A stretch of 64,000 nt of DNA from the NCBI GenBank assembly GCA_013239625.1, contig MU056898.1, positions 711,717 to 775,716 of the forward strand. The letters are read 5' to 3'. Position numbers and translations under genes: made by a program. Source of the DNA: Lama guanicoe. Lineage: Eukaryota. Position 1 is the first letter of the stretch. Each line of letters opens with the position of its first letter. The notes below the pieces were generated by a model that saw only the letters and a program-made list of their open reading frames with translations, was not told the origin of the DNA and did no database searches. Shown here piece after piece: positions 43,801-48,120 of the stretch.

Positions 43801-46800
43801 CTGCTGTTATTTTCTCTGGTGATGGTGGTGATGGTGGTGATGATAATGGTGGATGGTCATGATGATGGTGGTGATTGTGGTCATGATGGTCATGATGGTG
43901 GTGGTAGTCATGATGGTGGTGGTGGTCACAATGGTGGNNNNNNNNNNNNNNNNNNNNNNNNNNNNNNNNNNNNNNNNNNNNNNNNNNNNNNNNNNNNNNN
44001 NNNNNNNNNNNNNNNNNNNNNNNNNNNNNNNNNNNNNNNNNNNNNNNNNNNNNNNNNNNNNNNNNNNNNNNNNNNNNNNNNNNNNNNNNNNNNNNNNNNN
44101 NNNNNNNNNNNNNNNNNATCACGGTGGTGGTCACAGTGGTGGTGGTGGTCACGATGGTGGTGGTCACAGTGGTGATGGTGGTCACAATGGTGGTGGTGGT
44201 CGTGGTGGTGGTGGTCATGGTGGTGGTGGTGGTCACGATGGTGGTGGTGGTCACGATGGTGATGGTGGTGGTGGTGGTAGTAATGAAGATGGTATCTATA
44301 AGGGGAGTGGCTAAGAGCAAGCCCTGCAACCACGTGGCCTGGATTCTGATTCCACCTCTGCCTTTGCTCATTGGGTGACCTTGGGCAAGTGACTTAACCA
44401 CTCTGGGCCTCAGTTTTTTCCTGCTTGTAGGATGGGGATTGAGAGAGCACGTCCTCCTAGGACCCCGTGAACGCTAGGGTAACCACGGCATGCAGCGGCT
44501 CAGTCCTGGGCGTGGCTGGTACTGGCTGCTTCTGCCCCCCTTTTCTCACTACGGGACCCAGCTGGTGGGGGGAGGTGGGATGTGAGCCCAGGCCTGTGCC
44601 CCCACCACCAGGCAGCCCAGGCAGAGTGTGACGAGCCCCAGAGGCCTGGCCCCTGGCTCCCTGGCCTCGTGCTGCAGCAGCCTGGGCTGAGTGGAGGGCA
44701 GAGGGCCAGAGGCAAGCAGTGGGGAGGGCTGGGCTCAGGCTCTCAGGGGCAGGCCAGACTGCGGAGCCAAAAGAGGGCCTCCTGCTTCCGGCACCTGGCT
44801 TCCCCAGGAGGGGCCCTGACCCCTCCTCTTAATAGGCAGGCAGCGTGCCTGTGTGTAGACTGAGGTACATGTTTCTTGCCCTCCCCGGGTGACTCGCCCG
44901 CCATCCCACAGCGAGAAGGTTTGGGACCAGGTGTGTCTGCCCCAGGGCTGACCCTCTGCAGGCCTTGTGGCTGGCTGCCTCACGTCAGGGCCGGAACCTC
45001 TGGCTGTTCCCTCCCTGCAGAGGCCCGGACGAGGATGGGGAGGAGGAGGCCGGCCCAGGGCCACGGCAGGCGCACGACAGCCTCTACCGCGTGCACATGC
45101 CCAGCCTGTACAGCTGCGGGAGCAGCTACGGCAGCGAGGCCAGCATCCCGGCTGCCGCGCACACTGTCAGCAACGCCCCGGTCACCGAGTACATGTGAGC
45201 CCCGGGCCGGGCGGGGCGCGGGCCTCCCTTGGGGGGGGGCTGCCCCAGCTGTGGGGGTGCTGGGCTGGCCTTGAGTGCCTGCTGCCCCTACACGCCAAGG
45301 AGACCCCTGCGTCAGACGGAGGGTATATGTCTGGGGTCGCCGAGGGCTGGACCGACCACGTAATGGAGCCGAGGCCCTGGCAGGGCTGAGGCGGGCAGGT
45401 GGCGGCTGTGGGCTAGCTCTGAGCCCTTTATGGCCGTGCCAGGTTCCTGGGACCCCCAGGCCCTTGCTAGCGGCCGGTATGCAGGGTGGTGGAGAGAACA
45501 CGTGGGTCTGCCTGGCTCCAGATCGGCCCCTGGCCCAGGGCTGGGACTGCCGTGGCCACTGGTCACTCACAGCCCCTCTCTCCTCACGTCTCAGGAGCCA
45601 GAATGCCAATTTCCAGAACCCCCGCTGTGAGAACACCCCCCTCATCGGGCGTGAGTCCCCGCCGCCTTCGGTAAGTCTCAGGGCAGGAGGTGGGTGGGGG
45701 ACCCGAGGCCTGGGGTGGGGGGCACCTGTTCCCTCATGGTCTGATGTGGCCCTCGTTGACAGTGCAGCCATGGGGGCTGCCCTGAGCCTTCAGCGCCAGG
45801 GCCAGCTGGGGCTCCCTGGGGGGGCTCCCAGGCGGGTATCCGGCCTGTTGAGACTGGGCTGGGTGAGCTCTCATGCTCCTCGAGGGCCCCGGCATCTCTT
45901 CCCACCCTAGCCCTGCTTCCTCTTCTCCCTACTCCACTTTCTGAACTCAGCCCTGGTCTTGGCTCCTGGCTCCTCCGGCAGGACCTAGTGTCCCCTCTTG
46001 TCTTTGGAGTGAGACATGGAAGAGGGGACAGGGTGATTTAGTACCAAATAAAGGAGCTCGTAGAGAGGCCAGGGGCCCTGGCGGGCTTCCTAGAGGCGGT
46101 GGGCCTCAAAGAGCACGGCTAGAGAGGCCGAAGGCCACCTTGCTTCAGAAATAACGGCCCGCGCGTGCAGTGGTCCCGTCGTGCCCTGTGGCACAGAGCT
46201 GGCCTGGGTGTGTGCCCCCAGGCCATGTGGGCCCCAGGCCTCAGGCTGCCCTCCTACCTGTCAGCCTTGGTCTGACCCTGGCGTTGAGGCCGCCCTCTCT
46301 CTCTCTCTCTCCCTGCACTCCTCCCACCCTGGGCCCTCCTAGCGCTATCTGGCTGCCCTGGACTCTGGCAGCCACACGGGCTGGCAGTTTAAGCCCATGG
46401 ACAGTGCCTGAACGTTGTGGTGGCCGTGTCCTCAGAGTGACAGGTACTGACCCGCCTGGGTCCCCTGCCCTGCACCGCCTGCCCGCCCGCCTCTCCTTCG
46501 CTCACTGCTACCCCTTTGGGCCCATCTGCCAGGTCCTGGGGCTGCCTCAGCTCGGCGCCCGTGGGGCCAGCCTGCAGCCGGTGCAGGCGCAGGGACTTTG
46601 TGGCCCCCAGCCCAGACACGGAGACCCTGGCCCTGGGCCCATCATCCTCATGTCAGAGGCCACGAGCCCCTCCACAGAGCCCCCTCCTCACCCCAGGGCC
46701 AGCTGCAGGTGGCCCCTGCCCCTCATGTCACCTCCCAGCAAGGAGACCGCCCACCCAGACCCCTGTGCGCTGGCACACCTGCACCGGCGCCTGAGCTCAG

Positions 46801-48120
46801 GGAGGCAGAGCGCGGGTGAGCGAAGGCGCTGGGCTGCGGCCAGCAGGCCAGGCCCTCGAGGTGCCGCCCCGTGTGTCTGAAAGTGCACACAGGTGTGTGC
46901 AGATGGACGTGCAAGCTGCTGCAGCTGCCCCCACACAGCGCTGTGCACCTGCTTGGGCTCCTTCAGGGGTCTGGGCTGCTGCCCACCGCCCCCCTCCACC
47001 GCATGTCCCTGGAATGACACGGCTCCCAGTGCCCGCTGTTACCCCCTCCAGCTTGCCTTTGTGGCCTCTGATGGGTGCTTGCAAACTTCTCCCCCACCAG
47101 GAGTTCTGGGAGAGCTCTCAAGGACTGGGAGATTGCCCCTCCTGGCCTGGGCACTGTGGTGTGGGGACTTGGTTGCTGGAGCCCCCAGGGATTGGTAGGG
47201 GCGTGTGGCTGTGGAGTCAGCCTGCCAGGCTCCTTCCCACTGGCAACCCTTGGCACATGCCTTGGCTTTCATCCCCTAGATGGGTGTATGGCCCACTTCA
47301 CACTGCCCGGCCTTAACACATGTCTCCACGGGTGTTACATGAGCACACGGGCACACCGCAGGGCCTCTGTGCTTCAGGTGGGGTGAGCGTGGCCCTCCCC
47401 AGCTGCCCGTTCCTGCACCTGTGACCCGTAAGGAGCCCACAGTGTGGTTCCCACCCAGTGGGTGGCAGCAGCACCCCAGCCTGGTGCTGGGTGGCTTTGG
47501 GGCCCCCTTTCCCCGAGGTGATGGGGCAGAGTGGCCCCGGAGCCTCCTCACTCCTGTGGCCCACGGCTCTGGTCTGACCCTTTCTCAGATACAGCCTGGC
47601 CCCACCTTTGCCTGACACTGTCCTCCTGGGTGCCCAGCCAGGGCCCCACAGAGAGAGGCTGAGCATGGCTTTCAGGTCCTAGGTGTGAGGGGTGCAGGTG
47701 GGGGGCCTCCAGGCCCCAGGTCTTGCAGGGAGCAGAGCTCTGCCTGGCCTGAGACAGGAGATTGGGGGCTGATGTGTTTATCTTCCTGGGAGAGGAGGCT
47801 GGTCCCCAGTGTCCCCATCCTGAGCCTCGGAAGTAGGGGCCAGACCTCTGCTCCCTTGGGCTGTCACTGAGGCAGGGCTCAGGAGTCCAGGCCCTGGACC
47901 AGCCAGCGCTTCCCAGAGCCCCTCCTCCCAGGGTCTGTCAGCTGTACCTATCCCGCCCCAGGGGTGCTCCTGGCTCACCCCCCGAGGCCCATGTCCAGCC
48001 ATGCCCAGCGCCCCACTGACCGCCTGCCCCTCTGTCTCCTTCCAGTACACCTCCAGCATGAGAGCCAAGTACCTCGCCACAAGCCAGCCTCGCCCGGACC
48101 CCAGCAGCAGCGGGCACTAG
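22501..48120 (+). CDS. TTYH3: Protein tweety homolog 3, complete, 14 coding exons, 1575 nt / 524 aa
   Basis: Exon lengths 123,170,112,221,96,73,76,56,93,93,137,174,76,75 join in one frame with GT-AG introns. Translation runs MAGVSYAAPWWVSLLHRLPH... to ...RESPPPSYTSSMRAKYLATSQPRPDPSSSGH*. Confidence 0.98.
26150..26700 (-). mobile_element. L2 fragment
   Basis: ttctaggcagtggcaactgcacatgcaaaggccctgaggcagaga motif; boundaries approximate. Confidence 0.5.
32890..33070 (-). mobile_element. MIR SINE
   Basis: ttttatatgtggggaaactgaggcacagaggctaaag core. Confidence 0.7.
36282..36300 (+). promoter_or_regulatory. CTCF motif candidate (TGCCCACTAGGTGGCGTTT)
   Basis: Matches the CCACYAGRKGGCR core. Confidence 0.5.
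36515..36684 (+). CDS. TTYH3: TTYH3 exon 2
   Basis: ALLLLGAAALACLALDLLFLLFYSFWLCC...IIATLVC; cag/gtgagc. Confidence 0.97.
36825..36936 (+). CDS. TTYH3: TTYH3 exon 3
   Basis: AGIAVGFYGNGETSDG...GVQDR; cag/gtgagt. Confidence 0.97.
37069..37289 (+). CDS. TTYH3: TTYH3 exon 4
   Basis: VWDTAAALNRT...DLYDWYR; cag/gtgcgg. Confidence 0.97.
37618..37713 (+). CDS. TTYH3: TTYH3 exon 5
   Basis: WLGYLGFLLLDV...SKGILVG; cag/gtgagt. Confidence 0.97.
39017..39089 (+). CDS. TTYH3: TTYH3 exon 6
   Basis: VCLLGVLALVISWGTLGLELAVSV; aag/gtaagt. Confidence 0.96.
39369..39444 (+). CDS. TTYH3: TTYH3 exon 7
   Basis: GSSDFCVDPDTYVTRMVEEHSVLSG; cag/gtgagt. Confidence 0.96.
39690..40150 (-). mobile_element. L2 fragment
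   Basis: gtgcaaaggtcctgagacagaga...gaatttgggctttattctag motifs. Confidence 0.55.
41406..41461 (+). CDS. TTYH3: TTYH3 exon 8
   Basis: EVLQYYLACSPRAANPFQQ; cag/gtgagc. Confidence 0.96.
42087..42179 (+). CDS. TTYH3: TTYH3 exon 9
   Basis: KLSGSHKALVEMQDVV...PATK; cag/gtgagg. Confidence 0.96.
42773..42865 (+). CDS. TTYH3: TTYH3 exon 10
   Basis: DPLLRVQEVLNGTEVNLQHLTALVDCRSLHL; cag/gtgaga. Confidence 0.96.
42990..43126 (+). CDS. TTYH3: TTYH3 exon 11
   Basis: DYVQALTGFCYDGVEGLIYL...HTWQQK; tag/gtgagg. Confidence 0.96.
43815..44290 (+). repeat. Degenerate (GGT/GAT)n triplet repeat with ggtcac variants, broken by a gap
   Basis: Directly visible on both sides of the N run. Confidence 0.95.
43938..44117. 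other. Assembly gap (180 N)
   Basis: N run. Confidence 1.
44305..44480 (+). mobile_element. MIR SINE
   Basis: gtgaccttgggcaagtgacttaaccactctgggcctcagttt core. Confidence 0.8.
45021..45194 (+). CDS. TTYH3: TTYH3 exon 12
   Basis: GPDEDGEEE...HMPSLYSCGSSYGS...VTEYM; cag/gtgagc. Confidence 0.96.
45595..45670 (+). CDS. TTYH3: TTYH3 exon 13
   Basis: SQNANFQNPRCENTPLIGRESPPPS; cag/gtaagt. Confidence 0.96.
46343..46411 (+). CDS. TTYH3: Candidate alternative TTYH3 exon 13b (RYLAALDSGSHTGWQFKPMDSA*); donor after 46443
   Basis: Long CT-rich tract then tag acceptor, phase-0 open frame to TGA, CAG|gtactg donor; no transcript evidence available. Confidence 0.5.
   Translation, partial: RYLAALDSGSHTGWQFKPMDSA
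48046..48120 (+). CDS. TTYH3: TTYH3 exon 14, coding part
   Basis: tctccttccag acceptor; YTSSMRAKYLATSQPRPDPSSSGH, TAG at 48118-48120. Confidence 0.96.
   Translation, partial: YTSSMRAKYLATSQPRPDPSSSGH

Follow-up and report, generated by a model that had tools for sequence, protein, structure and literature searches.

A conserved cassette exon in the last intron of camelid TTYH3, predicted to exchange the C-terminal tail and to break the PPxY motif

Results

The TTYH3 locus and a cassette exon in intron 13

The window analysed here, a stretch of 64,000 nucleotides of genomic DNA from Lama guanicoe, carries TTYH3 on its forward strand. Local exon mapping placed 12 TTYH3 coding blocks upstream of exon 13, from 22501 to 45194 (three with approximate borders), and the peptide of exon 13 corresponds exactly to residues 476-500 of human TTYH3 (PDB 7p5c); the intron that follows is therefore TTYH3 intron 13. 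Together, the exons encode the Tweety domain (PF04906) and a TTYH3-specific tail. Among the proteins compared, only alpaca XP_015099985.1 has an end identical to the peptide of exon 14. As listed in Table 1, a cassette exon lies between these two exons. When it is skipped, the junction of exons 13 and 14 creates PPSY; when it is included, the junction reads PPSR and the coding part of exon 14 turns into 3' UTR. Both the PPPS/Y split and the PPPSR outcome had been proposed in the first-pass annotation, and the exon borders bear them out. A DNA search of the genome with the exon stretch returned a single match and no second copy. In the neighbouring exon 12-13 region (window 45021-45670), exon 13, or exons 12-13 together, are skipped in several database models; their proteins finish in a short shifted tail and would likewise lose the PY motif, and an exon-13 skipping event is also catalogued in mouse Ttyh3 (Dataset S9, PMC5989265).

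Table 1. Features of the TTYH3 3' region in the window, and the corresponding site in TTYH2
Feature	Position	Strand	Remarks
TTYH3 exon 13	45595..45670	+	76 nt; acidic dileucine-like motif, present in both isoforms; first part of the PY motif, PPPS
Candidate branch point CTGAC	46272..46276	+	67 nt 5' of the acceptor; sequence only
Pyrimidine tract and acceptor	46290..46342	+	(CT)n run; 53-nt AG-free zone; acceptor AG 46341-46342
Alternative cassette exon	46343..46443	+	101 nt, phase 0; 22 codons giving a 22-residue alternative C-terminus
TGA stop	46409..46411	+	at the site of Arg in most vertebrates
Exon remainder, untranslated	46412..46443	+	10 codons agree with the read-on tail of the horse and star-nosed mole models (10/10 residues)
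Weak 5' splice site	46444..46449	+	GT 46444-46445
YGCY cluster (MBNL-like)	46450..46549	+	10 motifs, 3' of the exon
TTYH3 exon 14, coding part	48046..48120	+	first codon Tyr completes PPSY when the cassette is skipped
TTYH2 PPPT/Y split	G000:C3168:5483900-5493800, positions 1557 and 6628	reverse	acidic dileucine-like motif just before

The splice elements, the phase-0 frame and the stop codon described for intron 13 in the first-pass annotation were all found where it had put them. Its ctgac near 46272 is likewise present, as a candidate for the branch point, with one GAG between it and the acceptor. AG/GT borders, a pyrimidine tract and a frame continuous with the upstream exon are thus all in place, and the donor is weak: with a home-made matrix, it scored 5.0, compared with 8.9 for the donor of exon 13. 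Within intron 13, 9 other acceptor-donor pairs spaced 50-250 nt apart passed the same thresholds, and the strength of the splice signals was consequently rejected as proof of the exon. What places the exon beyond chance is the conservation of its tail peptide (111 of 325 proteins) and the occurrence of 101-nt exons in mouse and human splicing tables, both described below.

Conservation of the alternative tail

Proteins were collected with an exon-12 query, which matched 444 sequences, of which the best 120 were taken. The set was enlarged by two cluster look-ups, with at most 15 members taken per cluster, and by a query with the opossum tail region that gave 52 matches out of 55 candidates. 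The final 325 proteins, a set without lamprey, were sorted by the sequence that follows PPPS. By this sorting, 136 continued with exon 14, 111 continued with the alternative tail, 21 continued otherwise (mainly intron read-through models, plus two shortened opossum tails), and 57 had no such junction; these entries are gene models, some of them redundant and some propagated by homology, and not all of them are independent transcript evidence. The 90% cluster of a bird TTYH3 model also contained IQCE proteins, probably because models of adjacent genes had been fused.

The alternative tail was found in human (XP_016868144.1), baboon, owl monkey, rodents, cattle, goat, pig, peccary, dolphin, horse, cats, bats, moles, elephant, tenrec, armadillo, tamandua, marsupials and platypus and, beyond mammals, in birds, lizards, a turtle, frogs, teleosts, bowfin, sharks and rays. 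Both isoforms are modelled in opossum, armadillo, baboon, sawfish, frog and loach. The camelid tail equals the human tail at 21 of 22 residues. In the annotated isoforms of human (XP_016868144.1), cattle (XP_005225372.1), horse (XP_023510926.2) and opossum (XP_056662459.1), the same peptide follows the same junction after PPPS. The models of horse, mole, cheetah and phyllostomid bats that read into exon 14 share the donor border of the camelid exon. In the puma and cheetah models, 8 residues are absent, in frame, from inside the alternative tail. Among the matches listed, no camelid model carried the tail, and the alpaca and dromedary models there lack it. A PDB search with the 22-residue tail gave chance matches only (best E 0.66), and the solved TTYH3 constructs showed no match to the tail. 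A search among short proteins for junction-spanning read assemblies gave 2 matches (3 candidates), neither from a read assembly.

Judged from these protein models, the exon is real, ancient and conserved across jawed vertebrates, which rules out a camelid-specific exon. The comparison with annotated isoforms, which the first-pass annotation had called for in mammals, recovered the tail from human to sharks. It also showed that the exon is already known, being annotated in many species and catalogued in splicing tables.

Loss of the PPxY motif and position of the stop codon

All 136 exon-14-type proteins contained PPxY, and none had a second L/PPxY. Conversely, 110 of the 111 alternative-tail proteins were without any L/PPxY; the single exception carried LPxY at residue 19, a long way from its tail. 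The tail began with Arg, Leu, Ser or Cys and never with Tyr, so the motif is broken in every lineage. The loss of the PY motif foreseen in the first-pass annotation is hence what the protein set displays, and the motif removed is the only one. Each of the two tails keeps one lysine, and the exon-13 motif, which we take to be of the acidic dileucine-like type, is retained in both isoforms; given these shared features, sorting may not change.

A stop codon located more than 50-55 nt upstream of the last exon junction triggers nonsense-mediated decay (NMD). In the camelid exon, the stop lies 32 nt before the donor, as had been claimed, and across species it was found 32 or 20 nt ahead of the junction, or within exon 14. 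By the 50-nt rule, transcripts that include the exon can be expected with considerable confidence to escape NMD, which argues for a protein product. A poison exon was rejected on the basis of the 32-nt distance and the conserved peptide.

The same data bear on the idea that the exon serves as an alternative last exon, by read-through of the donor, intronic polyadenylation and a changed 3' UTR, or that it controls expression through NMD. Three models (puma, Pteropus and Galemys) do read through the donor. In addition, the available text of a study of myotonic dystrophy (10.1101/728881) lists TTYH3 among genes with altered polyadenylation, and that of a study of SMA mice (PMC5794986) gives a change in the TTYH3 5'/3' ratio, the exon being named in neither. 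Yet 6 models join the exon to exon 14, and the mouse table classes the event as a cassette followed by the last exon. As for control through NMD, the stop positions predict escape, and a conserved peptide would be unexpected in a poison exon. We therefore give this alternative hardly any weight, and continue to regard the exon as a cassette that encodes a different tail.

The end of the tail and its absence in laurasiatherians

The camelid tail is 4 residues shorter than the human, rodent and non-mammalian forms, and in this it resembles those of cattle, pig and dolphin. Among 65 distinct tails, 49 end in Trp (this last Trp, together with Tyr2 and Trp14, served as a sorting criterion, and the invariance of these residues is partly built in), and 47 of the 49 have Ser or Thr two residues before the end. 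In sharks and rays, the Ser/Thr-x-Trp end persists despite a 2-residue insertion, and Arg23 was found in 43 of 43 tails of 26 residues. The ancestral tail ends in R-[ST]-x-W, which is conserved and may serve in binding. A free C-terminus of the form [ST]-x-hydrophobic is typical of PDZ class I-like ligands, in which Trp would be an unusual last residue; such an end is absent in the camelid, where the stop comes early.

The 41 placental rows were divided among 17 that end in Trp (primates, rodents, afrotherians and tamandua), 14 that stop 4 residues early (cattle, goat, pig, peccary, dolphin, two bats and armadillo), 9 that read on (horse, donkey, moles, cats and three bats), and 1 odd row. None of the 22 laurasiatherian rows had the ancestral end; 13 stop 4 residues early and 9 read on. 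We infer that the TGA at 46409-46411 is a lineage-specific truncation that would have removed the last 4 residues of the ancestral tail. When the protein models are set against textbook phylogeny, the simplest order would be that the ancestral stop was lost in laurasiatherians and that the Arg codon then became TGA; on the same phylogeny, this change would have taken place in cetartiodactyls and some bats, and separately in armadillo.

Since the tail is conserved over jawed vertebrates and is normally 4 residues longer, it may do more than delete a motif. It could be argued that the exon serves chiefly to acquire a new partner, with the R-[ST]-x-W end of the 26-residue tail binding a scaffold or trafficking factor (presumably of the PDZ-like, 14-3-3 mode III or ER-export type) and the PY loss being a side effect. 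The constancy of [ST]-x-W and Arg23 speaks for this, as such conservation is unneeded for mere motif deletion. However, the end is gone from every laurasiatherian row and from armadillo, the first 22 residues persist in lineages without it, and the invariance of the sorting residues is partly built in. On balance, we regard a new partner as an unlikely main function.

The early stop could instead mean that, in camelids, an isoform that is ancient elsewhere is decaying or near-neutral, being truncated and rarely included. The weak donor, the want of a camelid model with the tail among the matches listed and the 8-residue loss in the two cat models would fit such decay. Against it, the camelid tail is nearly identical to the human one, the same 22-residue form is found in the cattle, goat, pig, peccary and dolphin models, and the exon retains its two splice sites and its length; such a decaying or near-neutral state seems highly improbable. 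The reading that we prefer is still that of a minor cassette that breaks the PPxY motif.

Transcript evidence and tissue bias

In mouse, Dataset S9 of PMC5989265 contains the Ttyh3 cassette event CA-78339-25581-26840-26941-28500, a 101-nt exon between a 76-nt exon and the last exon. The event carries the tag 1/34, which we tentatively read as inclusion/skipping transcripts and which counts against strong use. It is in no developmental module of Dataset S9 and is absent from Dataset S5 of the same study. The exon thus falls outside the set regulated during development in mouse cortex, and this counts against a functional switch. In human, a 101-nt TTYH3 exon at chr7:2659940-2660040 is included in Supplementary Data 2 of ASCOT, a table of tissue-specific alternative exons (PMC6952364). 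Its length is that of both the camelid exon and the mouse event and, from the gene, the length and the human protein model, it is the likely counterpart of the camelid exon. Across the 51 GTEx tissues in that table, the PSI reached 39.0 in cerebellar hemisphere and 36.5 in cerebellum; the remaining 49 tissues lay at 2.6-13.7, and among these the non-cerebellar brain regions at 5.8-12.0. The cerebellar values fit the first-pass suggestion to look in brain first, and the low inclusion in most human tissues counts against a broad effect. The mouse and human table exons, together with the conserved tail, support the alternative exon that had been claimed, and we are confident that it would also be included in camelid transcripts. 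RNA sequencing runs containing part of the region exist for the camelid, with 0.28-0.36 of its sequence words; these figures do not count as evidence of inclusion.

With regard to regulation, 10 YGCY motifs occur in the 100 nt downstream of the exon, a density matched in 0 of 500 shuffles and 2 of 552 genic windows, and 6 UCUCU-type motifs occur upstream in a simple repeat (6 of 500 shuffles); these figures come from a set of 20 uncorrected motif-region tests. No GCAUG was found beside the exon. In Dataset S9, the mouse event is marked as a target of none of Mbnl, Rbfox, Nova or Ptbp (0 for all four; PMC5989265). Among the rows listed from the supplements on DM1 cortex, those for TTYH3 were gene-level and none was for the exon, a weak blank given that the hg19 coordinates depended on an assumed offset. 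Control by MBNL or PTBP was accordingly set aside: the motif clusters are present, yet neither the mouse network table nor the DM1 cortex supplements support it.

Discussion

WW domains of the Nedd4 family are reported to bind L/PPxY, and some Nedd4 substrates are reported to lack PY motifs, which counts against dependence on PY. The first-pass annotation had invoked Nedd4-2 binding by TTYH2 and TTYH3. Reviews that cite He et al. 2008 do state that Nedd4-2 regulates both proteins; the motif reported as necessary in the citing passages is the PPTY of TTYH2. In the passages available to us, TTYH3 is called a lysosomal membrane protein and is described as forming dimers, and the cytosolic tail of TTYH2 is reported to be unstructured.

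Against this background, we propose that inclusion of the exon would replace the TTYH3 tail and destroy its only PPxY motif. A subunit without PY could not directly recruit a NEDD4-family ligase and would be less ubiquitinated. The alternative isoform would then be shifted away from ubiquitin-driven endocytosis and lysosomal sorting, and might be more stable or more abundant at the surface. Taken as a whole, a minor camelid cassette that swaps the tail, breaks PPxY, likely ends NEDD4-family docking and shifts trafficking is a reading that we favour with moderate confidence. Its parts differ in strength: loss of direct WW binding in the alternative isoform is quite likely, and we lean only slightly towards a measurable change in location or half-life. 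As TTYH3 is dimeric, mixed dimers would still carry one PY motif, and any effect would matter mainly in cells with high inclusion; under random pairing, PY-free dimers would make up about 15% at 39% inclusion and <1% at 5%. In the full-text literature that was covered, which takes in few subscription papers or bioRxiv supplements, no effect of the exon on the PY motif or on ubiquitination was described. In PMC9732526, TTYH3 is discussed in connection with fusions, which have no bearing on the exon.

Two known systems invite comparison. In ERBB4, an included exon supplies the PPxY motif, and CYT-2 lacks it through exon skipping. The CYT-1/CYT-2 pair thus resembles the TTYH3 pair in that one isoform has L/PPxY and the other does not, and the CYT-1 isoform is reported to be targeted via PPxY by WWP1, a member of the NEDD4 family. 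In TTYH3, however, it is the skipping junction that creates the motif, and inclusion both breaks it and replaces the whole tail; moreover, isoform-specific targeting of ERBB4 was tested experimentally, whereas its TTYH3 counterpart is a prediction from sequence. The LAPTM4/5 proteins are, like TTYH3, multi-pass endolysosomal membrane proteins in which PY motifs steer Nedd4 sorting, and loss of PY is reported to missort LAPTM4b to the plasma membrane. They differ from TTYH3 in belonging to an unrelated family, in having several PY motifs and in that no splice switch is described in the passages available.

Within the family, the PY motif of TTYH2 in this genome is divided in the same manner, the last intron interrupting PPPT in phase 0 before Tyr (Table 1). 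The split predates the duplication. A tblastn search of the last TTYH2 intron (5 kb) with five tails as queries found nothing homologous to the alternative tail, and no paralogous cassette exon was found in the TTYH2 or TTYH1 stretches, so the cassette seems to be TTYH3-specific.

A wider proposal is that, over about 450 million years, one exon has exchanged the NEDD4 docking site of TTYH3 for an R-[ST]-x-W ligand, mainly in cerebellar neurons, directing the protein from the lysosomal route to the surface, and that laurasiatherians lost the ligand (the stop being lost and earlier stops then arising more than once) and kept the PY-off switch. We put this forward tentatively, as a doubtful possibility. 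If it were true, the laurasiatherian loss would be a natural experiment separating the function of the ligand from that of the PY-off switch.

To the earlier reading, the analysis adds the prior annotation of the exon, the conserved longer tail with its R-[ST]-x-W end lost in laurasiatherians, the cerebellar enrichment, the dimers and the split motif in TTYH2. In the passages available, TTYH proteins are described as probably not channels, TTYH2 is reported to move lipids in endosomes with the role of the cytosolic tail named as an open question (PMC12328215), and a 2021 review states that it is not known whether tweety splice variants differ in expression or function. The loss of the PY motif follows from the sequence, and a cellular effect would be a plausible consequence. 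This is a modest advance on a little-studied gene and not a new kind of system. It does identify two natural TTYH3 isoforms that differ in the presence of the only PY motif, the form lacking it being enriched in human cerebellum, and this pair would allow a cheap and specific test.
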